From NCBI GenBank assembly GCA_016193485.1, contig JACPRZ010000012.1:33109-97108 (forward strand): 64,000 bases of DNA, written 5' to 3'. A model generated the notes under the pieces. The model saw only the letters and a list, made by a program, of their open reading frames with translations. It searched no databases and was not told the origin of the DNA. Shown here piece by piece: positions 11,655 through 51,039 of the stretch. Origin of the DNA: Bacteroidota bacterium (lineage in GTDB: Bacteria > Bacteroidota > Bacteroidia > JACPRZ01). The position numbers were made by a program, and so were the translations under genes. Numbering within the stretch: position 1 is the stretch's first letter; each line of letters begins with the position of its first letter.

Positions 11655-12421
11655 CAGAATTTACCGGGAAAATTACAATTCAGAATAATATTCAACCCGT
11701 TGAGCACTAATCCGGGCCGCGCAAAGATGGGTATTTTTGACGAAAATGCTTTTTTCACCCCTTTAAACAGAAATGGCAGATCACCTCCGGTCATCACAAT
11801 AATCAGTCCGGGATGGTTTTTCAGATAGTTAACGATTATTCCGCTGATTTCTGATATGGCGCCATGGAATATACCTGCCCGGATGGAACCTTTAGTCGAT
11901 CGGCCTGTAAGCGGAACAGGTTCCTGAATGGATTCAATCAACGGTAATTTTTCAGTAAAAACGTAAAGGGATGCCGTTCTCATGGCAAGCCCGGGATGTA
12001 TGCTTCCGCCAAAATATTTTTGATCATCTGAAACGAAATCAAACGTGATACAGGTGCCGGCATTAATAACCAGCAGGGATTTCCCGGGAAAATGCGCTGA
12101 AGCCCCGACAACAGCTGCAATCCGGTCAGTGCCCAGGGTATGGGGTGTTTGATATTTTATTTTGACAGGAACCCGTGTTAATCCTGTCATGCGGATAAAG
12201 TGACAACGGGAGGCAAATATTTTTTCAAGGTTACGGGGATGATGAGCCACAGATGAAAGGATGACATTACGGATTGGCTTGTTCCTGCGCAAAAGGGAAC
12301 GCCACCCTTCAAGGGAAACTTTTTTCTTCACGCTCATTTTAATGAGCCGGGAACCTTTGAATATGCCAAATTTGGTCCGGGAATTACCTATATCGATGCA
12401 GAGATTAAGGGCAGATGGCAT
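11654..12421 (-). CDS. coaX: Type III pantothenate kinase
   Basis: 255 aa starting with LCIDIGNSRTKFGIF (ASKHA fold; CoaX motif DxGNT/S). Confidence 0.9.
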   Translation of the reverse strand: MPSALNLCIDIGNSRTKFGIFKGSRLIKMSVKKKVSLEGWRSLLRRNKPIRNVILSSVAHHPRNLEKIFASRCHFIRMTGLTRVPVKIKYQTPHTLGTDRIAAVVGASAHFPGKSLLVINAGTCITFDFVSDDQKYFGGSIHPGLAMRTASLYVFTEKLPLIESIQEPVPLTGRSTKGSIRAGIFHGAISEISGIIVNYLKNHPGLIIVMTGGDLPFLFKGVKKAFSSKIPIFARPGLVLNGLNIILNCNFPGKF

Positions 12422-12558
12422 GGATTTTAAATATCAATTCATTTGGAGTCAATCAAAGATACGATGATTTTTTACCGGGTGTAACAGGAATTTTTCAAAA
12501 TCACACCACAATCGCACTTCCCTGAAAATTTCTACCTTCGCAACCCTAAACCGAAGTT

Positions 12559-12726
12559 ATGAAACGTACTTTTCAGCCGTCACGCATCAAACGAAGGCAC
12601 AAACACGGCTTCCGCAAACGCATGTCCTCGCACTGGGGAAAGAGGGTGCTCAAAGCCCGGAGAAAACGGGGACGCTGGAAACTCACGGTCTCCGATGAAA
12701 AACCGCATAAACGGATCAGGAAGTAA
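12559..12726 (+). CDS. rpmH: 50S ribosomal protein L34
   Basis: Translation [55 protein letters not shown] (55 aa) matches the L34 signature [13 protein letters not shown]....GR.VL..RR.KGR..L. Absent from the ORF track because it is under 60 aa. Confidence 0.85.
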
Positions 12727-12751
12727 GCAGTGCCTTCGCAAAAACCTTCCG

Positions 12752-14680
12752 GTGAAGCGGAGCGTAACTATCTTTGTCTTTTTTCTCTGTTCATACTATT
12801 ATGCGCAAAGTGGGTCTGTGGACTCTCTATTGCATCGTTTGACGGATGCCAAAGGAACTGAAAAAGTTAAAATTCTCAGCGACCTGTGCTGGGAATACCG
12901 CTATTCATCCGTTGATTCTTCCCTGCTTTTCGGTCATAAAGCACTGAAACTTGCCGAGACGCTCAACTACCCTGCAGGAATTGCTCAGACCTGCAATGAC
13001 CTTGGTGTTGTTTATATGATGAAAGGCGATTATGATCTTGCCGTCAAATTATTTTACCGCGCACTGATGTGGCGTAAGGAACTTAACGATTCAACAGGCA
13101 TTGCTGCGGTGTTAAATAAAATCGGAATGATACATAAAGAGAGGGGCAGGTTGGATTCTGCGCTGGCTTGTTTTATCAGCGCCCTTGATATTTATGAAAA
13201 GATAAGGCATACACAGGGTATCGCTCACATGTTGAATAACGTTGCCGTGGTGTACATGCTCCAGCAGAATTACGATTCCGCCCTTGAATATTTTTTTAAG
13301 TCGCTGAAGATAAAGGAAAAACAAAAAGATGATTACGGCATTTCAGGAACACTGCTGAATATCGGGAATATATTTTATTACAAGCGAAGTTACCGGAATG
13401 CGATACCCTATCTTCTATCCGGAATTGAATATGCCAAAAAGGTAAACGAACTCTTATACATCGGACAGGGACTGAATAACATCGGTTCATGTTACCTTGA
13501 ATTACAAGTGTACGATACCGCTTTACAATACCTGACCGAAGCCCTTCCCATCCGTTTGCAATTACAGGATAAAAAAGGTGAGGCATCGACCCTTATAAAT
13601 CTGGCAAATTGCTATCTGCATCTGAAACATTTTTTAAAGGCGGAGCAGTATATGTCGGATGCCCTGAAAATGGCGCAGGAAATAGGGGCAAAACAGGAAA
13701 TCATGAACGCCCATCTGAATCTTTCTCTTTTGTATAATACCACCGGTGAGCAAGAGAAGGCATATGAAGAACATATCGAATATTCAGCAATGCGCGACTC
13801 AATTCTGAATGAAGAACGAAATAACCAGATAGCATCCATGCAGGTTCGTTATGAAACAGAAAAGAAGGAAAAAGAGATTGCCGTCCAGAAGTTGCAGATC
13901 AGCCACCAGCAACTGGCGCTGAACCGCAGAAAAGTAGAAGTGATTTTTCTGTCGGGTATAATTTTGCTGTTGTTTTTTTCGGGATTCTTATTTTACCGCC
14001 AGCAACGGTTAAAGCGCAGGCACCTCCGGGAGGTGGCTCTTATGGAACAAAAGGATATTCACATGAGGGCAATGGTAGAGGGGGAAGAACATGAACGCAG
14101 ACGGCTTGCAGGGGATTTGCATGACGGCCTCGGGCAAATGCTTTCCACCCTTAAAATGAATGTCTCATCCGTTCTGCCGGATAACGGTGCCGTTCCTCCG
14201 GAGGAAAAAGAAAAAACGCTGAACCTGATTGATGAAGCGTGTAATGAACTCCGCTCCGTTTCACACAACCTGATGCCTGCTACTCTCATCAAAGCGGGAT
14301 TGATTCCCGCCCTGCATGAGATCATTGAAAAGATCAATCATACCGGCAACCTGCAGGTTATTCTCATTACCCATGGACTGGAGAAAAGAATGGATAATTC
14401 AAAAGAGATAAATATCTACAGGATCATACAGGAATTGCTCAACAACGGCCTTAAACATTCCGGGGCAACGGAAATCATTGTACAACTGACCCGTGATGAA
14501 AGGGAATTAACCGTCACGGTTGAAGATAATGGAAAGGGATTCGATGTACCCGCTGCCGGTGAAGCCTCGGGTATCGGATGGAAGAATATCCTGTCGCGGA
14601 TTGCTTTTCTGAAAGGCGCTGTTAATGTGGATTCTCAACCCGGTAAAGGAACTACCGTTGCAATGGATGTTCCTTTGTGA
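12752..14680 (+). CDS. TPR-repeat sensor histidine kinase (HisKA_3/NarX-type + HATPase_c)
   Basis: ORF 12695..14680 overlaps rpmH. An in-frame GTG at ~12752 gives MKRSVTIFVFFLCSYYYAQS (signal/TM). TPR repeats, one TM segment (IFLSGIILLLFFSGFLFY), HisKA_3 (ERRRLAGDLHDGLGQ) and a GHKL ATPase C-terminus. Confidence 0.8.
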   Translation: MKRSVTIFVFFLCSYYYAQSGSVDSLLHRLTDAKGTEKVKILSDLCWEYRYSSVDSSLLFGHKALKLAETLNYPAGIAQTCNDLGVVYMMKGDYDLAVKLFYRALMWRKELNDSTGIAAVLNKIGMIHKERGRLDSALACFISALDIYEKIRHTQGIAHMLNNVAVVYMLQQNYDSALEYFFKSLKIKEKQKDDYGISGTLLNIGNIFYYKRSYRNAIPYLLSGIEYAKKVNELLYIGQGLNNIGSCYLELQVYDTALQYLTEALPIRLQLQDKKGEASTLINLANCYLHLKHFLKAEQYMSDALKMAQEIGAKQEIMNAHLNLSLLYNTTGEQEKAYEEHIEYSAMRDSILNEERNNQIASMQVRYETEKKEKEIAVQKLQISHQQLALNRRKVEVIFLSGIILLLFFSGFLFYRQQRLKRRHLREVALMEQKDIHMRAMVEGEEHERRRLAGDLHDGLGQMLSTLKMNVSSVLPDNGAVPPEEKEKTLNLIDEACNELRSVSHNLMPATLIKAGLIPALHEIIEKINHTGNLQVILITHGLEKRMDNSKEINIYRIIQELLNNGLKHSGATEIIVQLTRDERELTVTVEDNGKGFDVPAAGEASGIGWKNILSRIAFLKGAVNVDSQPGKGTTVAMDVPL

Positions 14681-38280: not shown

Positions 38281-41200
38281 CTACCGGCAAATAACCAGTT
38301 TCGTATATTTCCCTGAAGCGCCATCATCAATTTTCAGGTAATATATTCCTTCATCCCACCCTTTTACATTGATCTCAAAAATTTTTCCGGATTCATGAAA
38401 CGTTTTAGAAACGCCTAAATTGGGCGTCTCAATATTTCTTCCCATCATATCAAATATTGCAAAGGATATTCCACCCGGTAATCCGGAAAATTCAATTGAA
38501 ATTTTATCATTTGCAGGGTTCGGATAAACCTGAATACCGGTTCCTGTTTCCGATAATTCTCCACTTCCCATAGCACAATCTATATTTACGCTCCCGGTAA
38601 TCGTGCACCCGTTTGCATCGGTAACGGTAACTGAATATAGTCCAACGAATAATCCGGTAGCGGTTGCGGTGGTTTGTGAAAATAAATCATTCCAAATATA
38701 AGTGTATGCGCCAGTGCCACCGGATGGAGAAGCAATTGCCTGCCCGTCAGCGCAACCATTTGGAAAGGTCGCAGATATACTGTCAAGAGCCAATGTGAGG
38801 ACAGTTGGTTCAGTAATCTGTGCGGAATCAGTTGCCGTACAGCCGCCTGCATCGGTAACGGTAACATAATACGCTCCAGGGCATAAACTGTCAATTAAAA
38901 ATGCGGATGCTCCGGTATTCCATAGGTAAATTATCGGTGGCGGACCACTAACCGATGCTGCCACACTTCCGTTGCAGGTACCGTAACAGGTAACATCAAT
39001 GCTGTTCGTTACAAGGTTTACGGGAATAGGTTCGCTGATGATAACAGAGTCGCTTGCAACGCATCCATTTGCATCGGTTAAAGTGACTGCATAATTCCCG
39101 GCACAATATCCGGCTGTTGTTCCGTCACCGGAATAGGGGGGGGTACCACCGTTTGCTACTACCGTAATAGTTCCATCACAGTTGCCGAAGCAGTATGCGG
39201 GAGCAGAAGTTGCAGCGGCAGTCAGGAGTGCCGGTTCATTGATGGTAAATGATGCCGAATCGGTACATCCATTGGCATCGGTAGCGGTTACGCTGTAGGA
39301 ACCGGGACATAATCCCATGATGAGAGTATCGGTTGCTGAGTTGTTCCAGACAACAGCGTAAGGCGGGATGCCGCCATAAGGACTGATGACAATGAATCCA
39401 TCGCACAATCCGTAGCATGACACATCAAATGATGCCTGCAGCATGTCTAACACCGTTGGTTCAGTAATAACAACGGAAGCAAATGCAGAGTCGTTGCATG
39501 AAACATCTGTAACGGTAACGGAATATGTTCCGGCAGGAATATTAACCAGGTCTTCCGAAACATCACCGGTTGACCAATAAATGGAATAGGAACCGGTGCT
39601 CCCCATTGGCAAAAGATCCGCAATACCGGTAGCGTCTCCATTACAGGAAATGTTGGTTGCATTAATTGTTGCCGTCAGTGAATCGGGTTGCATAAGCGTA
39701 AACGCATCATAGTAAATACATCCGGAAGAATCGGTCACCGTAAAAGAATAAATGCCGGCAGTGAGGCCGCTGCTCAATTCACTTGTTTCCCCATTTGACC
39801 AGGAATAAGTGAAAGGCGCAGTACCCATATCGGTTATCACTTCTATGGATCCGTCATTCCCTCCATAACAGGAAACATTATAAAAATTCAGGTAGGCGGA
39901 AAGATTGCAGGTGCAGGAATTGACAGTAAATGAAAAATTGAAAGTTGAACCGCAACTGTCGCTTACGGTAACCAGGTAAATACCCGGAGAAAGCCCTGTA
40001 ATAGTGTCAGTCGTAGCGCCCGTAGACCAGAGGTAAGTGTAGGGCAGTGAACCGTTCATGAGCGTGACGCTGGCCGCACCGTCATTGCCGGAGTTTACAC
40101 AAACCACATTAGTGGAAGCGGAAAGAGGATTGGCATCATTTATTATCACATAGGTAATATTCTGAACAGGAAATGGCGGAGTGGTGCAGCCATTGGCATC
40201 CGCAACATTTACGCCATAATCACCCGGAGCCAATCCTGAAAGGTCTTCTGTCGTGGCAATAGGAATGGTCGGAGGCCAGGTATCATACCAAGCAATGGTA
40301 AAAGGACCCGTGCCGCCTGAAATGGTCAGGTCAGCGCTACCGTCATTATTGCCATAACATACTACATCGTAGCCGGTAATTGAAGTTGCCAGTTCAGGGG
40401 GTTCGGTAATATTTACAGAACTATCGAAATAACAGTTGGAAGAATCGGTGACGGTCACATAATAGGTTCCGGCAGGCAAACCGGTGATACTATCGGTATT
40501 CATAGAATTCGACCATGAATAAACATAGGGGGGGGTACCTCCTGTAACAGCAGCATAGGCATTGCCGTCATTATTGCCGTAACAGGTAATATCCGATGAA
40601 GAAAGAGAAACCATGAAATCAAAGCAGGCGATTGAATCATTGACAATAAAACTTTCTTCATTGGTGCACCCGTTTACATCGGTTACGGTAACGGTGTACT
40701 GGCCGGCACTCAAACCTGAAATATCTTCACCGGTTGCCGAATTTGACCAGAGAAATGAGTAGGGTGAGGTACCATCGCTGACTGAAATGTCAACCGAGCC
40801 GTTACTCCCTGATGATGGAGCCGTCATGCCTGTAACAGAGATTTGCGGTGGATCTGGCAGATCAGCAGATGTCCATGCCTGGCTGCATCCCAAACTGTCA
40901 ATAACCTGCACATCATACCAGCCCGCACTTAAACTGTCAATATCTTCGGATGAATCACCGGTTGACCATAAGTAAGAATAGGGGGGGGTTCCACCGGTAA
41001 CCGTAAGATCACCGCTTCCGTCCGAACCGCCATAACAAGTTATAGGCGTTACGGTAATTGAAGCAAAGGGCCATGTGGGTTCCGTAATGGTAACCTGGTC
41101 AACCGCAGAGCATCCCAAAGTATCCGTTACGGTTACCGTATAAGTATTGGCATAGAGGGAAGATGCAATTGAATCTGTTTGCCCGTTGCTCCATTGAAAT

Positions 41201-42825
41201 GAATAGGGTATTACGCCATTTGATGCTGATACAGTCGCCTCCCCGTCATTGTACCCGTTGCATGAAGGATTTCTCCATGATGAAATCACTGCCGTTAAAG
41301 AGCATAACGGTTCACTTACCGTGAATGTATCGGTCAGAGTGCAATTATTGCCATCGGTTATGGTAACGGTATAAGTACCGGCAGTTAACGAGTAAATATC
41401 CTCAACCATGTACCCGTTCGACCAGTTAAAACTGTACGAAGGAGTTCCTCCGGTTACAGTTATATCAACATAGCCGTCATTGTTACCCACAGTTGATGCA
41501 TTAGTGACAATACCCGAAATAGCGAGATTCACCGGTGCGATGACAAATGCGGAGTCCGCTATAGCGCATCCGTTAAAATCGGTTACCGTAACGGAATATG
41601 CTCCCGGAGGGACGCCATTAATGGTGTCTGTAGTAGCCCCGGCACTCCACAAATAAGAATAGGGGGGGGTACCTCCGCCTGCTGTTACCGATGCCGAACC
41701 GTTATTATTTCCGCAAGTTGCATCCGTGCTATTCATAGTCAACGTTGCCACGGTATTAATAGTCACACCCATAGTATCATTGTTGCTGCAACCATTGGAA
41801 TCGGTTACTTCTACTGAGTAAATTCCTGATGAGGAAACAGTCAGTGTTTGATTGGTTGAAGAATCGGACCAGAGGAAAGTTGAACCGCCATTTCCGGCAT
41901 CAAGAACCACATTACCACCGCATTGATTGGTATCAGTGCCCAAATTAACTACCGGAAGAGGATTGACTGTTAAAACAGCGACACTGCTTGTATCAGTGCC
42001 TCCTGCATTGGTAACAACACATAAATAATTTCCGGCAGAAGATAAAGAAACGGGAGCAATTACCATTGAATCGGCAGTAGCGCCCGGAACATCCGTTCCG
42101 TCTTTTTGCCATTGGTAAGCGAGAGGAGCATCACCGGTTGCCGTAATGGTGAATATAGCGGATTCTGCTTCGCACCTGATTAAATTTCCGGGTTGTGATG
42201 TTAATGAAGGCGCAATAACATAATTAACGATCAACCTTGGCGCCTGTGACTGAACTGAAAATTCCCTTGGTGCGAAAATGATAAAATCATTGAAAATATT
42301 TCCGGCCATCAAACTGTCATTTGAATCGTAAGCCGGATTGCTTCCTCCCGGGAAACCGGTCGGATCATCGGGGTCTTTCATCATGATGGAACAAAAGTTG
42401 TTTGCTGCATTGTAATCTTTTAAAAAAATGTTTTTAAGATTTTCCGATGCTGTCCATCCGGGAGCCGTTCCAAAGTTTAAAAGTTGAAAAACCGTATCGG
42501 TTTTTATATAATTCCAGAGTGTTGTTTCGGTATCCCCTTCCATCCAGGTTTGATTATTTACATTCATAAATTTAATATCGCCATCCCAGTTCAGCGCTTT
42601 CTCAAGGACAAAAACCTCCAGCCTTACATCGATGACAACGCTGTTTGGCGGTATGGAGGTAATGTCAAATTTTATGAAACTATTTTTGCCCTCACCGCCA
42701 CCATAGGTTTTTACATACACATCCTCTGCAGGGTACAGGGTGTCGCTATGCTGAGCGTAAGCGCAAAAAACACCCGATAAGGCAATTCCTGCGGCAATTA
42801 AAATTTTAACCATTGTTTTTTTCAT
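38281..42825 (-). CDS. Giant T9SS-sorted cell-surface protein with N-terminal DNRLRE/CBM-like domain and ~14 SprB repeats (adhesin-like)
   Basis: 1514 aa with signal peptide. Repeats of ~75 aa with C..G..DG...V...GGTPPYSY.WS.G........L.AG.Y.VTVTD.NGC (SprB-repeat pattern). C-terminal T9SS CTD (GIYYLKIDDGASGKYTKLVICR). Confidence 0.85.
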   Translation of the reverse strand: MKKTMVKILIAAGIALSGVFCAYAQHSDTLYPAEDVYVKTYGGGEGKNSFIKFDITSIPPNSVVIDVRLEVFVLEKALNWDGDIKFMNVNNQTWMEGDTETTLWNYIKTDTVFQLLNFGTAPGWTASENLKNIFLKDYNAANNFCSIMMKDPDDPTGFPGGSNPAYDSNDSLMAGNIFNDFIIFAPREFSVQSQAPRLIVNYVIAPSLTSQPGNLIRCEAESAIFTITATGDAPLAYQWQKDGTDVPGATADSMVIAPVSLSSAGNYLCVVTNAGGTDTSSVAVLTVNPLPVVNLGTDTNQCGGNVVLDAGNGGSTFLWSDSSTNQTLTVSSSGIYSVEVTDSNGCSNNDTMGVTINTVATLTMNSTDATCGNNNGSASVTAGGGTPPYSYLWSAGATTDTINGVPPGAYSVTVTDFNGCAIADSAFVIAPVNLAISGIVTNASTVGNNDGYVDITVTGGTPSYSFNWSNGYMVEDIYSLTAGTYTVTITDGNNCTLTDTFTVSEPLCSLTAVISSWRNPSCNGYNDGEATVSASNGVIPYSFQWSNGQTDSIASSLYANTYTVTVTDTLGCSAVDQVTITEPTWPFASITVTPITCYGGSDGSGDLTVTGGTPPYSYLWSTGDSSEDIDSLSAGWYDVQVIDSLGCSQAWTSADLPDPPQISVTGMTAPSSGSNGSVDISVSDGTSPYSFLWSNSATGEDISGLSAGQYTVTVTDVNGCTNEESFIVNDSIACFDFMVSLSSSDITCYGNNDGNAYAAVTGGTPPYVYSWSNSMNTDSITGLPAGTYYVTVTDSSNCYFDSSVNITEPPELATSITGYDVVCYGNNDGSADLTISGGTGPFTIAWYDTWPPTIPIATTEDLSGLAPGDYGVNVADANGCTTPPFPVQNITYVIINDANPLSASTNVVCVNSGNDGAASVTLMNGSLPYTYLWSTGATTDTITGLSPGIYLVTVSDSCGSTFNFSFTVNSCTCNLSAYLNFYNVSCYGGNDGSIEVITDMGTAPFTYSWSNGETSELSSGLTAGIYSFTVTDSSGCIYYDAFTLMQPDSLTATINATNISCNGDATGIADLLPMGSTGSYSIYWSTGDVSEDLVNIPAGTYSVTVTDVSCNDSAFASVVITEPTVLDMLQASFDVSCYGLCDGFIVISPYGGIPPYAVVWNNSATDTLIMGLCPGSYSVTATDANGCTDSASFTINEPALLTAAATSAPAYCFGNCDGTITVVANGGTPPYSGDGTTAGYCAGNYAVTLTDANGCVASDSVIISEPIPVNLVTNSIDVTCYGTCNGSVAASVSGPPPIIYLWNTGASAFLIDSLCPGAYYVTVTDAGGCTATDSAQITEPTVLTLALDSISATFPNGCADGQAIASPSGGTGAYTYIWNDLFSQTTATATGLFVGLYSVTVTDANGCTITGSVNIDCAMGSGELSETGTGIQVYPNPANDKISIEFSGLPGGISFAIFDMMGRNIETPNLGVSKTFHESGKIFEINVKGWDEGIYYLKIDDGASGKYTKLVICR

Positions 42826-42978: not shown

Positions 42979-43012
42979 TTTGTATATTTGCATTCAAAAT
43001 GCAAATATACAA
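42979..43012. promoter_or_regulatory. AT-rich perfect inverted repeat tttgtatatttgcat-tcaaa-atgcaaatatacaa just upstream of the AAA/DUF4143 gene
   Basis: 14-bp perfect arms with a 5-nt spacer. Overlaps the TTG-initiated 5' extension of ORF 42988; the true ATG is at 43024. Confidence 0.4.
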
Positions 43013-43023
43013 GTATTAATAGC

Positions 43024-44220
43024 ATGGGCAAATATATTCATCGCGAAATAGAGAGTGTAGTATTATCAGCCGCCAGGCAATTTCCATGTGTAATTGTAAC
43101 CGGACCCAGGCAATCCGGAAAAACCACGCTTTTAAAGCATCTTTTTGCCGGTAAATACCGCTATGTAACAATGGATGATCCTGACAAGCGGCTTATGGCG
43201 ACAAACGAGCCGCAAATTTTTTTTGAAAACAATCCTCCGCCATTAATCCTTGATGAAATACAATATGTACCGGGCATATTACCGTATTTAAAAATGATTA
43301 TTGATAATGACCGGTCCAGGATGGGACAGTTCATATTAACCGGCTCGCAAAATTTTTCTTTAATGGCCGGTGTTACGGAATCGCTTGCGGGAAGAATATC
43401 TGTTTTGAATTTACTCTCCTTCTCTTTAACCGAAAAGGTAAAAAAATTATCCGGTCTTTCGTACAGAAAATTACAGGAGCATGTGATAAAAGGCGGTTTT
43501 CCGGAAATTTATGTGAATAAAAAAGCCGATATCCGCATGTGGTACAACAGTTATCTGAACACGTATCTTGAAAGAGATGTCCGTAATATCAGGCAGGTGG
43601 GTGATTTACTGGAATTTCAGCGTTTCATGGCGCTTCTTGCGGCAAATAACGGCAATCTGATTAACTTATCAACATTTTCAAGAGACCTTGGCGTTGCTGT
43701 CAATACAATAAAACAATGGGAATCCGTGCTGGAAACAAGCCAGCAGGTATTTCATCTTAAACCCTATTTCAACAATGAGGGCAAGAGGATTATTCAGAAT
43801 CCCAAAATATATTTCCTTGATACCGGGCTTGTTTGCCATATAAACCATCTTACCCTCGCGGAACAGGTTTTTTCAGGACCGGGAGGCGGACAATTATTTG
43901 AGACCCTCTTTTTAACCGAAATTATCCGGCATTATTATAATAAAGGCGAACCGCCAGGGATATACTTCTGGCGGACATCCTATGGAGAAGAAGTTGATTT
44001 CATCATTGAGGAGAAGGGAAAATTAATACCGGTGGAATTAAAACTGACTTCCCGCATAAAACCCGAACTTGCAAAAAACCTTAAATCATTTCAGCGGATA
44101 TTTAATAAAAAGATCAGGAAATCCGTTCTGGTTTATCTCGGCAGGGAACGCATAAAACTGAATGACAATATTGAATTTATACCGTTTCAGGAATTTTTCA
44201 GCAAATTTCCGGAGATTTAG
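43024..44220 (+). CDS. AAA-family ATP-binding protein with DUF4143 C-terminal domain
   Basis: Walker A (GPRQSGKTTL). Start at the internal MGKYIHREIE. A widespread Bacteroidota family of unknown function. Confidence 0.7.
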   Translation: MGKYIHREIESVVLSAARQFPCVIVTGPRQSGKTTLLKHLFAGKYRYVTMDDPDKRLMATNEPQIFFENNPPPLILDEIQYVPGILPYLKMIIDNDRSRMGQFILTGSQNFSLMAGVTESLAGRISVLNLLSFSLTEKVKKLSGLSYRKLQEHVIKGGFPEIYVNKKADIRMWYNSYLNTYLERDVRNIRQVGDLLEFQRFMALLAANNGNLINLSTFSRDLGVAVNTIKQWESVLETSQQVFHLKPYFNNEGKRIIQNPKIYFLDTGLVCHINHLTLAEQVFSGPGGGQLFETLFLTEIIRHYYNKGEPPGIYFWRTSYGEEVDFIIEEKGKLIPVELKLTSRIKPELAKNLKSFQRIFNKKIRKSVLVYLGRERIKLNDNIEFIPFQEFFSKFPEI

Positions 44221-44353
44221 CAGGGATTGCGTTTTTGTTGATATTTTATCTCATTTATTTGACTACTTTTGACGGACAATAATGATTTTTTTAGCGGAAC
44301 AGCAAAAGTAAAAGTGCCAAATCTTCATACCCTTTTTTATTAACCTTGTTTCA

Positions 44354-44785
44354 ATGGCGGATGTTCACGACAGGGAAACGAGAAGTTACAATATGAGCCA
44401 AATCAAAGGCAAAAATACAAAGCCGGAGATTTTGGTAAGAAAATTTCTTTTTGCAAGGGGATTCCGTTATAAATTGCATGATAAAAAACTTCCGGGTAAA
44501 CCGGACCTGGTTTTTCCAAAGCTTAAAACGGTATTATTCATTCATGGGTGTTTTTGGCACGGACATGAAAATTGTAAATACTTTATTATTCCAAAAACCA
44601 GAACTGACTGGTGGTTGAAGAAAATCCGGAGTAATAAACAACGAGATGTGGATAACTATTTAAAAATAAGTAAAGAAAAATGGAGGGTTTTAACTATCTT
44701 TGAATGCGAATTGAAAAGTGACAAACGTCAAACAACTCTCAATAGGATATTAAAACGTCTGAAAAGAATACATGAAGCAGTTTAA
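44354..44785 (+). CDS. vsr: Very-short-patch-repair endonuclease (T/G mismatch-specific)
   Basis: TKPEILVRKFLFARGFRY...LPGKPDLVFPKLKTVLFIHGCFWHGH...WRVLTIFECEL matches the Vsr family. Overlaps dcm by 14 nt. Confidence 0.85.
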   Translation: MADVHDRETRSYNMSQIKGKNTKPEILVRKFLFARGFRYKLHDKKLPGKPDLVFPKLKTVLFIHGCFWHGHENCKYFIIPKTRTDWWLKKIRSNKQRDVDNYLKISKEKWRVLTIFECELKSDKRQTTLNRILKRLKRIHEAV

Positions 44786-46010
44786 TTTTATTGACCTTTT
44801 TGCCGGTGCCGGGGGACTTTCCGAAGGGTTTATTCGTGCAGGTTTTAATCCAATAGCCCATGTTGAAATGAGCAAAGAAGCTTGCTGTACCTTACAAACA
44901 AGGCTGGCTTTTCATTATCTCAGGCAAAATAGAAAATCAGAAACCTATTTTTCTTATCTGAAAAATGAAATATCGAGAAATGGTCTTTGGAATACAATTC
45001 CAGATGAATTATTAAAGTCAGTAATTAATGAAGAAATATCTGACAAGAGTATGCAGAATATTTTTGACCGGATTGATGACCAACTTTATTCCAAAAAGGT
45101 TGATGTAATAATAGGTGGACCTCCTTGTCAGGCATATTCACTTGTTGGAAGAAGCCGTGACCCTGATAGAATGCAGGGAGATAAGAGAAATTATTTATTC
45201 AGGGACTATGCACAATTTCTGATTCGTTACAAGCCAAAGTATTTTGTCTTTGAAAACGTGTTGGGTTTACTTACCGCTGGAAATCAAAAATATCTCAATG
45301 AGATGATTCAGCTTTTTGAATCAATCGGCTATTCGGTTGGTACCCCTACTGTGTTAAATGCACAGGAATACGGGGTTCTTCAAAAAAGAAGAAGGGTAAT
45401 CATAATTGGAAAACGCGGAAAAAAGAAATTTGAATTTCCACATGTTAGTACAAAAGAGAACAAATGGCAAATAAAAAAGGACTTATTTTTTGATTTACCG
45501 AAATTAAACCCCGGAGATGAATTACCATTAACCAATTATACCAAACCAATAAACGAGTATTTGAAACTAACTGAAATCAGAAATGGAATAGATTTCATTA
45601 CTCAACATATCGCCAGGCAGCACAATGAGAGAGACATAGAAATATATTCTATTGCTATTGACAAATGGATTAATTATAAAACAAGATTAAAATATACCGA
45701 TATTCCGAAAAGGTTACAGACACATAAAAATACCAATGTATTTCTTGACAGGTTTAAAGTGATTGATCCTTTCGGCTGTTCGCATACAATGGTTGCTCAC
45801 ATCGCGAAAGATGGACATTACTACATTTATCCAGACCTTAATCAAGTCCGTTCAATATCAGTTCGTGAGGCAGCCAGAATTCAATCATTCCCTGATGATT
45901 ATTATTTTGAAGGAGGACGGACTGCTGCATTTAAACAAATTGGAAATGCGGTGCCACCGCTGATGGCAAGTGCTATTGCCAGAGGAATTAAGAAGCAGTT
46001 GACGAAATAG
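44772..46010 (+). CDS. dcm: DNA (cytosine-5)-methyltransferase
   Basis: Motif I FIDLFAGAGGLSEGF, motif IV GGPPCQAYS, motif VI FVFENV, motif X QIGNAVPP. Confidence 0.9.
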   Translation: MKQFNFIDLFAGAGGLSEGFIRAGFNPIAHVEMSKEACCTLQTRLAFHYLRQNRKSETYFSYLKNEISRNGLWNTIPDELLKSVINEEISDKSMQNIFDRIDDQLYSKKVDVIIGGPPCQAYSLVGRSRDPDRMQGDKRNYLFRDYAQFLIRYKPKYFVFENVLGLLTAGNQKYLNEMIQLFESIGYSVGTPTVLNAQEYGVLQKRRRVIIIGKRGKKKFEFPHVSTKENKWQIKKDLFFDLPKLNPGDELPLTNYTKPINEYLKLTEIRNGIDFITQHIARQHNERDIEIYSIAIDKWINYKTRLKYTDIPKRLQTHKNTNVFLDRFKVIDPFGCSHTMVAHIAKDGHYYIYPDLNQVRSISVREAARIQSFPDDYYFEGGRTAAFKQIGNAVPPLMASAIARGIKKQLTK

Positions 46011-46728
46011 AAATTTTTACTTGCTCTAAAACTTCTTTCAACTCAGCGACATCCAAAAATGGAAGATTGCGGACACCACCAACAAGATTTAATCCTTTGA
46101 AAATTTCTCTTGTTTTATCTTCATTGGAAGAAATTTCCGGATTATTTTTTAAAAATTCCAATAAGGCAATTCTGATATTTTTATTGCTACCAAAACCTCG
46201 TTCAACAATTCCGGTGCTCAAATCTGCTCTGCTCAATAAAATTTCTGTGAGTTCATGTGGATTATTCCTCTTCTCATCATAAGTAAGATGAGAAAACCAC
46301 CACAATCTTGAGATGCCATTTCGTGTTAATGATTCAATATTTATATTTCTCAGAAAATATCGGTCTTTTAATCTTCCTATTTCCTTTCCTTCAGATGCTT
46401 TTTCCATAGGCCACCTTGCCCTCATGTATTTCCAAAATGTAAAATGGGTGAGATAAGTCCAAAGGCGTTCATCTGATGCTTGTGTTTCGTTCAAAGTTTT
46501 CAATGCCTCATAAAGTATTTTACTATTTTCCAAATCACCTTTGTCAGCTTCAAGAATTAAATCATCACTAATAAAAATTCCGGTATTCCCTCTTGGAAAC
46601 TTTTCTTCATAAGGAAACCTGTCCAATTTGTAGTTATCAAAATTGTTAGTAGCAACTGTATCTCTGAAAAGTTTATCGATGTAACTTTGCTGAAAAACTT
46701 TTAACTCAATTTGATTTTTATTTTTCAT
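45988..46728 (-). CDS. Hypothetical protein, third gene of the GHKL-ATPase operon (candidate restriction/defence component)
   Basis: 246-aa ORF with no recognisable motif. Its start overlaps the upstream gene's stop by 1 nt. Its 3' end overlaps the dcm 3' end by 23 bp. AT-rich codon usage. Confidence 0.5.
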   Translation of the reverse strand: MKNKNQIELKVFQQSYIDKLFRDTVATNNFDNYKLDRFPYEEKFPRGNTGIFISDDLILEADKGDLENSKILYEALKTLNETQASDERLWTYLTHFTFWKYMRARWPMEKASEGKEIGRLKDRYFLRNINIESLTRNGISRLWWFSHLTYDEKRNNPHELTEILLSRADLSTGIVERGFGSNKNIRIALLEFLKNNPEISSNEDKTREIFKGLNLVGGVRNLPFLDVAELKEVLEQVKISISSTAS

Positions 46729-47546
46729 TATTCTTCCATTAATTGTTTAAGGGTATTGAATGACCGATTATTCGGGTGGTCTAATATTCTTTGCGCTCTT
46801 TCAATGTCTGTTCTGTCCTTTGATTTGTCTTTAATATCCGAAAGAACCTTATACCATCTTTTGTCTGCATAATCTTTTGCTTCATCTGATGAAATAAAAT
46901 GAAGCGCTTCGATCAACGCTGGCAGAACGATACTGCTTAAAAGTAAATTCACCCATATTCCTTTTTTTACAATCTGATAATTTTCATAATCTTCCTGACA
47001 AAGCATTATGGTTATTTTTTCACCTGAATATTCATTATACATCGGATGATTATTTTTTCCAGTAGTATCAATATTCATTAATGCAGAAATTGACTTTAAT
47101 TCTTCCGGTGATTTATTCGCGTAAAATCTTCCTTTGCCTGCATATGCAAGAATATCTCCCCTATCAACGGAAAATGAATAGCCGGAATAATCAGAATTGA
47201 AATCTTTGTTACTGTAACGGGTAATGTTTTCATTGGCACAAATGAAAAAATCAATTTCAACTTCACCGTTTAACTTATAGGAGTTGATTTTAATTGCATC
47301 AGTAATATTCTTTTCGGACTTGAAAACTTCTCTATACATTGTGCCTCTACAATATAGATGTGAAACAAGCATCGCTTGCTTTTTCTCAACCAAATTTTGC
47401 AACACATCATTTACTATTTTAAATGTCGGAGAAATTTCAATTTCTTTACCGGAAGAAGAAACCCGGAGTTCAATTTCTATTAAACCGCTAACATCATCTC
47501 CGATTCCCAAAACTGGGTGCGGATATAATCTGTTATTGTAAAGCAT
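46728..47546 (-). CDS. Hypothetical protein, second gene of the GHKL-ATPase operon
   Basis: 272-aa ORF. Its start overlaps the GHKL gene end by 14 nt (translational coupling). No recognisable motif by eye. Confidence 0.5.
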   Translation of the reverse strand: MLYNNRLYPHPVLGIGDDVSGLIEIELRVSSSGKEIEISPTFKIVNDVLQNLVEKKQAMLVSHLYCRGTMYREVFKSEKNITDAIKINSYKLNGEVEIDFFICANENITRYSNKDFNSDYSGYSFSVDRGDILAYAGKGRFYANKSPEELKSISALMNIDTTGKNNHPMYNEYSGEKITIMLCQEDYENYQIVKKGIWVNLLLSSIVLPALIEALHFISSDEAKDYADKRWYKVLSDIKDKSKDRTDIERAQRILDHPNNRSFNTLKQLMEE

Positions 47547-49362
47547 AAGCGTCTATTTTGAGTGAAAATTTTATTGGAGAATCAATCGTCACATTGAGTT
47601 TCATTTCTTTTCCTTCTTCCAGATTAATACTATGAATGTTATTGCCCGTGAAATGCGGAGTGTGACCGCCCGCACTAACTACTTTTGAGATTTTTAATTT
47701 TTCAGACCCTTCTTCACCGACAGCGGTAAGTTTTAAATTACACCTCTCGCTAATTTCTGCTTTGAGAATTATCATATATTCAAGTAAATTTTTTGTTCGC
47801 TTCATGAGAAATGACCTTGATTGAAATTCATCTTCATCAAATTTTCTTTTTGATTTTGTCCGCTTCTTTTTCTCTCTTCTTTTTCTTTCTCTTTCTCTTT
47901 CTTTTTTTCCTTCTATATTGGTTGTGTTCACAACAGTAACTTTGAAAGGACTTATGACAACGGGTTCTTCAAAAATTTCCTTCTTCTGAATTTTTTTTGA
48001 AGATTCTTCTTCTGCTTCTTCACCTGTATATTGGGAAACACCATCTCCCTCCCCCGTATTTTCGCCATCATCATAAGGCAAGTATTTATGGAGTTCGGGA
48101 ATATCAAGAACGCCTGATGATTTTGTGATTTTCATTTTATCAAGGCAATCCCTGATAAAAACAATTATTTCTTCCATTGCTTTCGCACCTTTTTCAGTAT
48201 TGCGTTCAGGAATCCATTTGTCATGAGCCGGTGGCTCCATTCTTCTCAATTCCTTATTCCCTTTGTCATCATCACAAATAAAAACTCCCGCATAATTTCC
48301 AGGGAAGGTGAATCTACGAGAATAAATCACCATATGTGACTTACGAATCATGGAAACATAATTCAGTTGCTCTTCTGTTTGGTAAAAATAAAATTTCACA
48401 TTGCCAAGCGTATGAAGTTTTCCTTCAAATGGTGTCCCGTTCTTAATAGCAAGGTAATATTGCAATGGATTTCCTGTTGGCTCTACATAAGCTTTGAATG
48501 GTTCTCCAAGAAAATGTTCAGTCAATAATTTTTCAAGGTTATCCTGATTGATTTGAATATTTTCAACTTTAACAATTAAGTCATTATTGCTGATAGCGTA
48601 CCAAAAATTACGAAGAATTGATTTTATCAGATTTTTTTGCCACCCTTTTTCATTCTTATAACTGGCAATGAAAATATCAGTTCCCGTTTCTTTTCGCCAA
48701 AAATTTTCAGGAATGTCTCTTGGATTTTGAAGTGAACCTTGTCCGATACCAAACGATCCGACACCTCTTTTTATATCTTTGTCAACTTCGTGGCTTACTA
48801 ATTCAGCAATGCCTTGAAATTTTGTAAATCCTTTTTCAGTTTTAGTAGAATAAAAAACTACCCTTAGGTTAGAAGCAGCAAAAGGAGCACCTTTACCGAT
48901 ACCGAACGAACCACCCTCACCCTGATCTTTTGAACTTGCTCCTGTTGATTTTACTAAATTATACCAACCACCTTTTTTATCATTATCAAGTCCCAATAAA
49001 CCTTTTGTATTGAAATCAGATATTCTTAAAAATGGAATAGTTTCACCCTTTATACATGCGAGAGCATCATCCATAAAATTTTGAGTATCTTTATCTGATT
49101 TGTAATATTTTTTGCAAGCATTCAAAACTTCAAGTAATTCACTTTGCCCTGGAAATTCTTTTCGTGTGAACTCCTCAAGTTTAAAGGTAACCAATACAGG
49201 ATCATCGCTTCCGTCCTTCTTCGCATCAAGAGAGTTTTGAATAATTTCTCTTGCAAGGTGGTAATTGTAATTTCCCGTAAAATGTTCAATCATTGAATTG
49301 TGAATACCGTCCTCTCGGCCTCCACCCGTAGTAACAAATTCCCATGTTGGTTCTTTTGTCAT
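47533..49362 (-). CDS. GHKL-superfamily ATPase (MORC/MutL-like HATPase_c_3-type) with Lys/Arg/Glu-rich C-terminal segment
   Basis: Bergerat N-box LAREIIQNSLDA (ExxxNxxDA), G1-like DFNTKGL, G2/G3 GGSFGIGKGAPF. Charged low-complexity stretch KKERERERKRREKKKRTKSKRK. First gene of a 3-gene operon. Confidence 0.7.
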   Translation of the reverse strand: MTKEPTWEFVTTGGGREDGIHNSMIEHFTGNYNYHLAREIIQNSLDAKKDGSDDPVLVTFKLEEFTRKEFPGQSELLEVLNACKKYYKSDKDTQNFMDDALACIKGETIPFLRISDFNTKGLLGLDNDKKGGWYNLVKSTGASSKDQGEGGSFGIGKGAPFAASNLRVVFYSTKTEKGFTKFQGIAELVSHEVDKDIKRGVGSFGIGQGSLQNPRDIPENFWRKETGTDIFIASYKNEKGWQKNLIKSILRNFWYAISNNDLIVKVENIQINQDNLEKLLTEHFLGEPFKAYVEPTGNPLQYYLAIKNGTPFEGKLHTLGNVKFYFYQTEEQLNYVSMIRKSHMVIYSRRFTFPGNYAGVFICDDDKGNKELRRMEPPAHDKWIPERNTEKGAKAMEEIIVFIRDCLDKMKITKSSGVLDIPELHKYLPYDDGENTGEGDGVSQYTGEEAEEESSKKIQKKEIFEEPVVISPFKVTVVNTTNIEGKKERERERKRREKKKRTKSKRKFDEDEFQSRSFLMKRTKNLLEYMIILKAEISERCNLKLTAVGEEGSEKLKISKVVSAGGHTPHFTGNNIHSINLEEGKEMKLNVTIDSPIKFSLKIDAYALQ

Positions 49363-49538
49363 AATATTAAAATTTGAATTTATATTTTACTGCACGCAAC
49401 ATCTCATTATCAATTGTATTTATATAAAAGGGAAATTTATATTCATCCAAGCGTTTTATATATTCCCGCAACAAGATTTAATAATTCGTGCTGATTTTGA
49501 ATTGTAATTGGTATTTTCATGGAAAATAATTTTTGGTT

Positions 49539-49943
49539 TCAAATCAACTCCACCTTAAACCCCTTCTCCGCTTCCAGATTTTTAAACTCACTGTCCCCGG
49601 TGATCAGCGTTGCTTTTTTCTTTATGGTTAATGCTACAGCGAAGGCATCGGCATAGGAAATCTTGTGCCGGGATTTGAGCTGCGCAGCAGCATAGGTTAA
49701 ATTAAAGTCCGCATCTACAATTTCTATCGGGAAATGCAATACGGAACTTAATGCCAGTTCTGCTTTTTCCGGACCTCTCTTTCTATAAGACATATAATAT
49801 ACTTCTCCCAAATTTACCACTGACATTGAGCCGTACTTCTCTCCATTGGAAATATCAGAGAGCAACTGCGATACTGTTTCGTGTCCCTTTTCTTTTTCCA
49901 GCAGGGCAATGATGGCAAAAGTGTCAAAGACAATATTTCTCAT
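49539..49943 (-). CDS. vapC: PIN-domain toxin (VapC-like) of a type II toxin-antitoxin pair
   Basis: 134 aa with N-terminal D (FDTFAIIAL) and the later acidic residues of the PIN fold. Overlaps the upstream antitoxin by 4 nt. Confidence 0.7.
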   Translation of the reverse strand: MRNIVFDTFAIIALLEKEKGHETVSQLLSDISNGEKYGSMSVVNLGEVYYMSYRKRGPEKAELALSSVLHFPIEIVDADFNLTYAAAQLKSRHKISYADAFAVALTIKKKATLITGDSEFKNLEAEKGFKVELI

Positions 49944-50170
49944 AATTCTCTTTCTATGGCTTTTTCTTTCATTAATTCTTCCAGGATGCTTCCTTCGCCT
50001 TTGAGTATTCCGGCAAACGATTCAAAATACTCCTTCGTCATGGCTTTCAGAATTATTTCACCGTTTTTTTCAATGATGGCGATTTTTGTCCCGGGTTTTA
50101 TGCCATATTTCCTTCGGATCCTCTTTGGAATTACAATCTGCCCTTTATTAGTTGTTATTGATGTTTCCAT
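49940..50170 (-). CDS. AbrB/MazE/SpoVT-family antitoxin (VapB-like)
   Basis: Start at the internal METSITTNKGQIVIPKRIRRKYGIKPGTKIAII (swapped-hairpin DNA-binding motif). 76 aa. Confidence 0.65.
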   Translation of the reverse strand: METSITTNKGQIVIPKRIRRKYGIKPGTKIAIIEKNGEIILKAMTKEYFESFAGILKGEGSILEELMKEKAIEREL

Positions 50171-50295
50171 ACGATAATATTTGGTAATACACATTAGGTT
50201 AATGGGTACAAAGATATATAATATTAACGAATTGACAATGGGTGTACGAAAATTATTTTTCTGCAATGAGTAATCATTATAAGCCGCCATAGTAT

Positions 50296-50400
50296 TAGGT
50301 TCCCGCAGATTTCGCTGATTTTCGCAAAAAAAAACCTATGTATCATAATTAAAATCAATAATAAAAAAATCTGCGTGTATCTGCGATATCAGCGGGAAAT
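50296..50400. repeat. ~105-bp intergenic element with terminal inverted repeats (ttcccgcagatttcgctgat ... atctgcgatatcagcgggaa); copy A
   Basis: Shares a 20-bp exact 5' word and a 3' word (aaatctgcgtNtatctgcg) with copy B at 53911. Lies in the divergent promoter region between the antitoxin gene and padR. Confidence 0.6.
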
Positions 50401-50529
50401 GTTATTACAGATTTGAAATCAGCCTTATTTTGTTAATAACTTGTTAATAACTTTTTAATATATGCAATACAAGGTACTAATTTAAATACTTATCTTTGCA
50501 GTGTCAATTACCTTATTAACGAATGTACT

Positions 50530-50874
50530 ATGGAACAAACAATAAACATTGAAAACACAAAAGCACAGATGAGAAAAGGGGTGCTGGAACTGTGCGCCCT
50601 TGCAGCGCTTACTGCCGGAGAAGCATACCCTTCCGATATAATTGAGAAATTGAAAAAATCAAAACTAATTGTCGTTGAAGGAACCATATACCCGATGTTA
50701 ACCCGGTTAAAAAATGCCGGGCTGCTTACCTACCGTTGGGAAGAATCCAGGCAAGGACCACCCCGAAAATATTACCGGTTAACTCCTATTGGGGAGAAAG
50801 TGCTGAAGGAACTTGAAGATTGCTGGGATGAACTTGCCGGTACTGTTGATACAATAAGGAAAAACAAAATTTAA
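50530..50874 (+). CDS. PadR-family transcriptional regulator
   Basis: Winged-helix motif YPSDIIEKL...GTIYPMLTRLKNAGLLTYRWEES...RKYYRLT. Confidence 0.85.
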   Translation: MEQTINIENTKAQMRKGVLELCALAALTAGEAYPSDIIEKLKKSKLIVVEGTIYPMLTRLKNAGLLTYRWEESRQGPPRKYYRLTPIGEKVLKELEDCWDELAGTVDTIRKNKI

Positions 50875-51034
50875 CTATCATCTAACCATCTAACCATCTA
50901 ACCATCTAACCATCTAACCATTTAACCATTTAACCATTTAACCATCTAACCATCTAACCATTTAACCATTTAACCATTTAACCATCTAACCATTTAACCA
51001 TTTAACCATTTAACCATCTAACCATTTAACCATC
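50873..51034. repeat. Tandem octanucleotide microsatellite (AACCATCT / AACCATTT) x ~20, ending 5 bp before the PspC-domain gene start codon
   Basis: Read directly from sequence: aaccatct x5, aaccattt x3, aaccatct x2, aaccattt x3, aaccatct, aaccattt x3, aaccatct, aaccattt, aaccatcc. Confidence 0.9.
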
Positions 51035-51039
51035 CAATT

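Follow-up and report, generated by a model that had tools for sequence, protein, structure and literature searches.

In the paraMORC systems described by Iyer, Abhiman and Aravind (2008; PMC2292703), the gene for a GHKL ATPase shares its operon with those for a cytosine methylase and the repair endonuclease Vsr, in laterally mobile loci that centre on SF2 helicases and on nucleases of the restriction-endonuclease (RE) or HNH fold. By another route, 'guilt by embedding' in BREX, DISARM and Type I restriction-modification (R-M) loci, Payne et al. (2024; bioRxiv 10.1101/2024.01.29.577857) arrived at the family PDC-M33. In the portions of the text and supplements of that preprint consulted here, PDC-M33 as published is a three-gene computational candidate: supplementary file 8 enters CAS_00129 (FAM_02818>>FAM_02838>>FAM_01881, 98 instances) with the words 'Assign as candidate PDC-M33', and these portions make no mention of a link to a C5 methylase or Vsr, of a GHKL assignment or of the additional gene, S, described below. 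A full-text literature search for 'PDC-M33' or 'DUF6339' returned no paper. Here we describe a PDC-M33 locus in a stretch of 64,000 nucleotides from a Bacteroidota genome, referred to throughout as the window, where the three genes, named A, B and C, face a vsr gene and a gene for a C5-cytosine DNA methyltransferase, Dcm. New relative to PDC-M33 are the linkage of the triad to a methylase, the GHKL motifs of A and the fourth gene S, and we lean, with confidence slightly better than even, towards reading the cassette as a horizontally mobile defence system keyed to methylation, of the restriction-modification/BREX kind.

The cassette resembles the predicted paraMORC-type R-M systems in its GHKL ATPase, in its association with a cytosine methylase and Vsr and in its lateral mobility, and is best read as a variant of them. 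The paraMORC2 proteins are described as having a conserved ExxxH at the end of their S5 domain (Iyer, Abhiman and Aravind 2008, PMC2292703), and A resembles them, by description only, in an invariant E376xxxH380 that follows its GHKL motifs. Unlike in the paraMORC operons, no SF2 helicase, RE-fold or HNH nuclease is conserved here, and B and C are not described there. The one experimentally validated GHKL defence protein that we found is VcSduA, of Shedu type I-D (paraMORC3), in which a GHKL ATPase is fused to a DUF4263 PD-(D/E)xK nuclease and which has been shown by experiment to act against phage (PMC12137116). Its GHKL motifs I-IV, at work in phage defence and in a protein whose protection needs ATP hydrolysis (PMC12137116), are the point of likeness to A; VcSduA is, however, a single protein that contains its nuclease and lacks a methylase, whereas here there are three proteins, no match to DUF4263 or any other nuclease domain, and a linked methylase.

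Similar gene content is also found in the HEF_HK/Response_reg_2 loci (Bellieny-Rabelo et al. 2021, PMC8011034), which have a C5 methylase upstream, a GHKL protein with a small partner, Vsr nearby and a wide, patchy distribution; the difference is that A, B and C match none of HEF_HK, HATPase_c and Response_reg_2, and that the partner folds differ. On the reading proposed here the cassette would come closest in its logic to BREX and DISARM, with which it would have in common a methylase that marks self, ATPases, an effector without a recognisable nuclease and a specificity defined by the methylase, but the module is much smaller and has a GHKL protein in place of an AAA+ or helicase motor. Among the six proteins scanned with PADLOC there was no match to PglZ, BrxC, BrxL, DrmA, DrmB or DrmC; of the BREX and DISARM models only that for the DrmMII-type methylase of DISARM was hit, by Dcm, for which it was the best model (3.8e-166), and A, B, C and the ATPase encoded upstream of vsr hit none. 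The CglI, NgoAVII and BceSIV systems (PMC4267653) likewise couple a C5 methylase to a multi-subunit, NTP-hydrolysing restriction arm, and genes for NgoFVII-type nucleases lie beside three modules related to ours. BceSIV had been considered as a precedent for a GHKL R-M system and was dropped, the literature giving it a PLD nuclease and an SF2 ATPase.

The five genes of the cassette are arranged in the window as follows:

44354-44785, plus strand: vsr, very-short-patch repair endonuclease of 143 residues (Pfam Vsr 9.1e-34; TIGR00632 3.9e-40; PADLOC Vsr 6.1e-33)
44772-46010, plus strand: dcm, C5-cytosine DNA methyltransferase of 412 residues (Pfam DNA_methylase 8.3e-67; TIGR00675 5.2e-55)
45988-46728, minus strand: gene C, 246 residues, PDC-M33C (Pfam DUF6339 1.3e-58; PADLOC HMM 1.4e-55)
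46728-47546, minus strand: gene B, 272 residues, PDC-M33B (PADLOC HMM 2.3e-63; no Pfam family)
47533-49362, minus strand: gene A, divergent GHKL-type ATPase (by motif) of 609 residues, PDC-M33A (PADLOC HMM 2.6e-142)

The open reading frame (ORF) map, with the junctions read, gives an overlap of 14 nucleotides between vsr and dcm, of 14 between A and B and of one between B and C (junction TAATG), so that the five ORFs and overlaps set out in the first-pass annotation, made from the letters of the sequence, stand as given. Its description of the segment as AT-rich also held, GC content being 0.32-0.36 across approximately 44000-50500 as against 0.40-0.48 in the flanks, and no tRNA gene, integrase or flanking direct repeats were found as island boundaries around 44-50.5 kb. 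The genes dcm and C are convergent, their 3' ends overlapping by 23 nucleotides (45988-46010) with no terminator between them, and the same convergent overlap is found in three related loci (L001-L003; 14-27 nucleotides), which hints at antisense or transcriptional-interference control of both arms. A, B and C are annotated as hypothetical in the source metagenome-assembled genome (HYY40_02690-02700). That the genes are real, far beyond chance, follows from the homologues of each, which number hundreds to thousands, and from a gene order that is kept across phyla.

Vsr repairs T:G mismatches that arise from the deamination of 5-methylcytosine. Both Vsr and Dcm exceed the curated Pfam and NCBIfam cut-offs, and the canonical C5-methyltransferase motifs that had been noted in Dcm are visible in its translation (I, FAGAGG; IV, GPPCQ; VI, ENV; X, GNAVPP). 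Dcm is presumed to be the arm that marks self. As for A, B and C, the proposal that they form part of an undescribed module has to be given up, since the PADLOC check that had been recommended identifies all three as PDC-M33 (A, residues 6-607; B, 1-270; C, 60-236), adjacent and in the order A>>B>>C by which that family is defined. The families and their order are the same as in PDC-M33; the window adds the linked methylase and Vsr, lacks S and has a MazE-PIN pair instead.

The link to the methylase emerges from a comparison of 80 genome loci, obtained from an alignment of A homologues, whose ORFs were searched with hidden Markov models (HMMs), an iterated profile being used for Dcm; the counts for Dcm and Vsr refer to 67 informative complete loci. 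These 80 loci span Bacteroidota, Patescibacteria, Alpha- and Gammaproteobacteria, Planctomycetota, Acidobacteriota, Chloroflexota, Bacillota, Deinococcota, Nitrospirota, Elusimicrobiota and others, and wherever the contig allows they keep the order A-B-C with its tight packing and overlaps. Of the 67 loci, 62 have a Dcm-type gene no more than 2.5 kb from A-B-C; 53 of these genes share the strand of the triad and nine are, as in the window, on the other one. In L057-L079 dcm abuts or overlaps A, and in two further loci (L047, L052) the distance to Dcm is 4.4-4.7 kb. Vsr occurs in 35 of the 67. The genes just outside the module are heterogeneous, with 114 Pfam families represented among 124 neighbours, only three of these genes encoding NgoFVII-type nucleases and a few HNH nucleases; this diversity indicates that no classical restriction endonuclease is conserved beside the module and that the module has a clear boundary. 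Among the same 124 neighbours no helicase and no RE-fold nuclease is conserved either. The proposal that A-B-C and a methylase form a conserved functional module is thus borne out by the frequency of Dcm, by its position inside the operon in some loci, by the heterogeneity of the neighbours and by the absence of a conserved classical restriction enzyme; homologues that usually occur without any methylase had been set beforehand as the outcome that would count against it, and they do not.

A minority of loci has no Dcm (in Deinococcus, Clostridiales, and Lactococcus and Ligilactobacillus plasmids), two of them lying beside N6-adenine methylase genes instead. Intact triads occur among the loci without Dcm, which implies that a C5 methylase next door is not an obligatory partner of the effector. 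Elsewhere it is the triad that is damaged. In L066 an insertion sequence with a DDE_5 transposase (11782-13143) separates A from B and leaves dcm intact; the ORF of A or C is broken or split beside an intact Dcm in L075, L071, L048 and L007, and L037 also has a split ORF. Some of these split ORFs could be assembly errors of metagenome-assembled genomes. Broken A or C together with an intact Dcm is the decay expected if the effector is dispensable and the methylase is not.

The triad and the methylase are also exchanged independently. Relative to the window, A, B and C of L002 are 73, 75 and 79% identical and its Dcm (518 residues) only 30%, whereas in L012 A, B and C are 46, 46 and 54% identical and Dcm 74%. 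A scan of A, B and C in blocks of 30 residues found no segment that tracks Dcm type and no specificity module, and A-B-C probably has no matching recognition sequence of its own, as judged from these comparisons. An endonuclease matched in specificity to its methylase would not tolerate such swaps, from which we infer that A-B-C either uses the methylase for targeting or acts independently of sequence. Of the features by which a Type II R-M system is recognised, the window has a methyltransferase of known type, in Dcm, and lacks both a cognate recognised nuclease and a restriction component that co-varies with methylase specificity. The earlier idea that the operon is a restriction arm therefore survives in the sense of a linked, R-M-like module, but a simple enzyme matched to its methylase is unlikely, given that Dcm is swapped.

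Protein A carries the four motifs by which the GHKL superfamily is recognised, in order and in 51 diverse homologues: motifs I-IV lie at residues 38-47, 116-122, 150-159 and 227-229, and both ExxxNxxDA (E39, N43, D46) and GGSFGIGKG (150-158) are read in the translation. In alignments of 23 and of 51 sequences, R38, E39, Q42, N43 and D46 of motif I, G151, G154, G156 and K157 of motif III and G227 of motif IV are invariant, as are D116 and G121 of motif II, the form of which (DxNTxGL) is atypical. A conserved region of approximately 160 residues follows, with an invariant R340, and with it the middle region of the protein has the invariant E376xxxH380 (E376-P-P-x-H380); the MORC-specific S5 motif GhXhhpXXRhl was not seen by eye in the 23-sequence alignment. 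Residues ~430-525 form a variable, basic or glycine-rich linker of low complexity, inside which falls the Lys/Arg-rich stretch noted earlier (KKERERERKRREKKKRTKSKRK, residues 486-507), and a small conserved domain (~525-609) makes up the C-terminus. A search of PDB chains gave a near-match to colicin E7 over the linker (E 0.15), which was judged to be due to chance, and A matches no nuclease family in Pfam or PADLOC.

The sole Pfam family matched by more than one member in the scan of 51 A sequences is HATPase_c_3, and its matches to A homologues are weak (one of 23, two of 51 and two of 10 sequences, E 0.024-0.05). Two of the hits are colinear with the profile: residues 36-59 of the L042 protein match profile positions 9-28, and residues 124-172 of the L083 protein match positions 38-88. 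When A was aligned by hhalign with MutL and HtpG of Escherichia coli, the N-boxes (motif I) alone came into register, at a probability of ~1% that is not significant. A had been described as MORC/MutL-like and as carrying unambiguous GHKL ATPase motifs: its motifs I-IV are indeed invariant and do resemble those of MORC and MutL, but no Pfam, NCBIfam or PDB profile match is significant and membership rests on the motifs, so that we retain GHKL-type ATPase as a tentative, motif-level assignment.

Both smaller proteins had been described as free of recognisable motifs; B has no Pfam family, but C is a DUF6339 protein. The confident AlphaFold2 model of B has an N-terminal beta-sandwich (residues ~20-182) and a C-terminal helical bundle (184-271), with an N-terminal YPHPVL motif and R72, W231 and Q252 invariant in the family, which is large, clustering at 50% identity leaving 2,686 representatives of B alone; the best 150 hits of an exhaustive HMM search are all full-length family members and include no annotated remote relative. 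The model of C, also confident, is all-alpha, and its invariant positions are QAsDxRLWxYLtH (R88...H95), Y101, R105-W106, R141-L-W-W144, D169, E176-R177 and N214. Neither protein has structural relatives in the PDB, Foldseek against BFVD gave no match, and nothing of use came from searching PDB chains with the sequences and profiles of A, B and C. The suggestion that one of the small proteins might be a nuclease finds no support in these models, which match none of the PD-(D/E)xK, HNH, GIY-YIG and PLD folds for which a search had been advised. On its modelled structure, C is a candidate catalytic or nucleic-acid-binding subunit of unmatched fold, and this fold may conceivably be a new catalytic one.

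Three specific assignments were tried for these proteins and rejected. C has an invariant R-x6-H that recalls the Rx4-6H of HEPN RNases, but that motif is diagnostic in a four-helix HEPN fold and the fold of C rules it out. For B, a PD-(D/E)xK nuclease (D131...N144-K145) fails on distant homologues, which lack the acidic-x-K pattern, and on the fold, an Ig-like sandwich; the same fold disposes of B as an SRA/PUA-like reader of methylated bases.

Upstream of A the window departs from most of its relatives. Directly upstream of A in 56 of the 85 related loci in which it was counted lies S, a gene of ~75 codons without a Pfam family (for example 9763-9996 in L001), whose product has the motif RFxxxAxxRxxKVLxxLxxLGNCxNxxxYEYTxxDVxKMF. 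In L048, L053 and L065 the order is S-Dcm-A-B-C, and codons of these genes overlap. No homologue of S was found in the window by tblastn or HMM, and in the window, L005 and L027 the position of S is taken by a MazE-PIN pair. The features on this side of A, and the gene on the far side of vsr, are:

49363-49538, minus strand: gap of 176 nucleotides between the PIN gene and A, presumed promoter or leader of the A-B-C operon
49539-49943, minus strand: PIN-domain toxin of 134 residues (Pfam PIN 7.9e-18)
49940-50290, minus strand: MazE/AbrB-type antitoxin, ORF of 116 residues (Pfam MazE_antitoxin 2.3e-11 over residues 46-86)
42988-44220, plus strand: AAA_14 + DUF4143 ATPase, directly upstream of vsr (PADLOC PDC-S01 1.9e-104)

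The MazE/AbrB ORF overlaps the start of the PIN gene by four nucleotides, and an antitoxin of this type followed by an overlapping PIN toxin is the arrangement of a Type II toxin-antitoxin module; the true start of MazE is probably the internal methionine at residue 41, near 50170. The segment had been described as flanked by a toxin-antitoxin pair. The pair is there, immediately upstream of A and on its strand, but on one side only, the other flank being the AAA_14/DUF4143 ATPase. PIN may be co-transcribed with A, and a -35/-10-like match at 49413-49384, a putative promoter by consensus match only, lies in the gap between them. The order MazE-PIN-A recurs in L027 and in L005, where A is 54% identical to that of the window and PIN ends 10 nucleotides before A. 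Since A-B-C has remained intact at the divergence between L005 and the window, S would appear to be dispensable or functionally replaced in the sub-lineage of the window.

The AAA_14 + DUF4143 ATPase belongs to PDC-S01, itself a family of untested candidates; L016 has a homologue at a distance of 7 kb from the module, and the gene is otherwise not conserved with it. Beyond MazE, the gap between a PadR-like ORF (50530-50874, plus strand) and the ATG at 51040 of a gene for a 539-residue membrane protein is filled by ~19-20 head-to-tail copies of an 8-nucleotide unit (CATCTAAC/CATTTAAC; 50879-51037), a tract that could undergo phase variation by slipped-strand mispairing. Further upstream of vsr, an ORF of 1,514 residues (38281-42825, minus strand) has many Cys/Gly/Thr-rich repeats of ~80 residues, a signal peptide and what resembles, by eye, a sorting domain at the C-terminus; the product, probably secreted to the cell surface, is unrelated to the cassette.

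The contexts in which the cassette occurs, plasmids, temperate phage and AT-rich islands, are mobile and rich in defence genes. Homologues of A were found on 27 plasmids and in two phage records, the family being rare on viral contigs, with two loci found. On a conjugative plasmid of Lactococcus lactis, A-B-C is flanked by an AlwI R-M system, with its two D12-class N6A methylases, and by a truncated HsdM, near AbiGI/GII. On the megaplasmid pMP1046A of Ligilactobacillus salivarius (L088, 10198-16146) the order is hsdS, hsdM, a small ORF, A, B and C, with an integrase ahead of hsdS and an MmeI-like enzyme, a DEAD helicase and a GIY-YIG nuclease after C; no hsdR is listed near the triad in a gene table that is incomplete, and in this lineage the partner of the triad may be a Type I N6-adenine methylase in the place of Dcm. 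On a Deinococcus plasmid, Dcm-Vsr is found close to S-A-B-C; the Clostridium innocuum temperate phage NatCom_9291 has S-A-B-C beside its integrase and then a C5 methylase fused to a helix-turn-helix domain, and a Priestia plasmid also carries A-B-C.

In the mechanism that we envisage, Dcm would methylate host cytosines and Vsr would repair the T:G damage that results, limiting its mutational cost, while a complex of A, B and C, usually with S, would act on DNA without the mark. Specificity would come from the methylase or with its help, A-B-C sensing whether DNA is methylated either jointly with that enzyme or through it, as in Type I and Type III R-M, BREX and DISARM, and the effector step would be licensed when ATP drives A to dimerise. 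The effector would be either a cryptic nuclease, namely C or the E376xxxH380 of A, or a non-nucleolytic DNA clamp working by MORC-like entrapment. The defence reading draws on the linkage counts, the position of Dcm inside the operon, the lack of any other conserved partner, the mobile contexts, the AT-rich island and the decay pattern; the defence function, the formation of a complex, its dependence on methylation and the chemistry of the effector are what we infer. A bolder version, which we put forward as a speculation with the chances well against it, is immunity without a nuclease: A, as a MORC-like clamp whose long linker is basic and disordered, would be loaded, with the help of B, C and usually S, where the methylase finds DNA unmethylated and would entrap or compact it, blocking replication or expression. 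Such a system would be a prokaryotic counterpart, and possibly an antecedent, of methylation-coupled MORC silencing in eukaryotes, with S replaced by MazE-PIN in the sub-lineage of the window, possibly as an RNase back-up.

Several observations weigh against the methylation-keyed defence reading. The family is a computational candidate only; A has no significant match in Pfam, NCBIfam or the PDB by profile or sequence search, and the models of B and C match no PD-(D/E)xK, HNH, GIY-YIG, PLD or HEPN fold. A-B-C is intact in L059, L063 and L064, where a Dcm is absent from the surrounding 8-10 kb, and on Lactococcus plasmids, where it also lacks one; on the Priestia plasmid and in L054 Dcm has a classical restriction endonuclease of its own (of the Sau3AI/MutH family and NgoFVII-like, respectively). 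Methylases as dissimilar as 30% identity could share a target sequence, and the window copy, without S, could be defective. Some of these points are shared with the alternative that we take most seriously, one that we hold to be unlikely but far from negligible, in which A-B-C, with or without S, is a self-contained sensor-effector or abortive-infection module that lies beside methylases through the clustering of defence genes, with Dcm uninvolved. PDC-M33 was defined by its embedding in other systems, the triad does not co-vary with Dcm type, the three Dcm-less loci and the L. lactis plasmids hold intact copies, and a Dcm with its own endonuclease is the pattern that mere co-location would give. 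Co-location by itself, however, sits poorly with a Dcm-type gene adjacent in 62 of 67 loci in many phyla where the other neighbours vary, with a partner that is nearly always a C5 methylase, and with the several lineages in which the operon includes Dcm, between S and A and with codons that overlap; even the Dcm-less L. salivarius copy directly follows hsdS-hsdM, with hsdR unlisted.

Three further explanations were weighed. An accessory role in repair, with a MutL-like GHKL ATPase and its partners assisting Vsr on T:G mismatches, is suggested by the presence of Vsr here and in 35 of the 67 loci, by the cooperation of the GHKL protein MutL with Vsr (Iyer et al. 2008, PMC2292703), E. coli MutL being a stimulator of Vsr, and by the lack of any other recognisable nuclease in the module. 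We consider it improbable: about half of the loci do without Vsr and a few without Dcm, and the module is patchy, AT-rich, found on plasmids and phage among abortive-infection and R-M genes, and frequently pseudogenised, all of which is the behaviour of a mobile defence element. Still less credible is a modification-dependent, Type IV-like system directed against foreign modified DNA, with Dcm as unrelated baggage, at which the lack of a matched specificity in A-B-C is the sole hint; an enzyme targeting 5-methylcytosine would be self-destructive beside a C5 methylase in its own operon, and no SRA, PUA/EVE or DUF262-type reader fold appears among the structural matches of B and C. A two-component-like regulator of the methylase, with A as a GHKL protein of histidine-kinase type and B and C as its partners, has a known parallel in the succession of C5 methylase, HEF_HK GHKL protein, response-regulator-like protein and Vsr (PMC8011034), and yet we give it the least credence of all. 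A, B and C match none of HisKA, HEF_HK, Response_reg and Response_reg_2, the models of B and C do not have the receiver (CheY-like) fold, the G2 box (GSFGIGKG) and N-box ((A)RExxQNxxDA) of A resemble those of the MutL/Hsp90/MORC type, and the only recurrent, if weak, Pfam match in the A family is to the MORC-type HATPase_c_3.

The cassette is present in more than ten phyla, on plasmids and in phage, with three core proteins that have no characterised relative, and it is among the tightest linkages of a methylase to an effector without a recognisable nuclease. The way in which self would be told from non-self here bears on a question also posed by BREX and DISARM, namely by what means a system that has no classical restriction enzyme converts methylation status into immunity, and the shuffling of methylases suggests a design rule by which specificity follows the methylase. 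Functional data would be the first for a methylase-linked system of the paraMORC type, predicted from gene neighbourhoods in 2008, and the clamp, if true, would be built from two folds, those of B and C, without structural relatives in the PDB.

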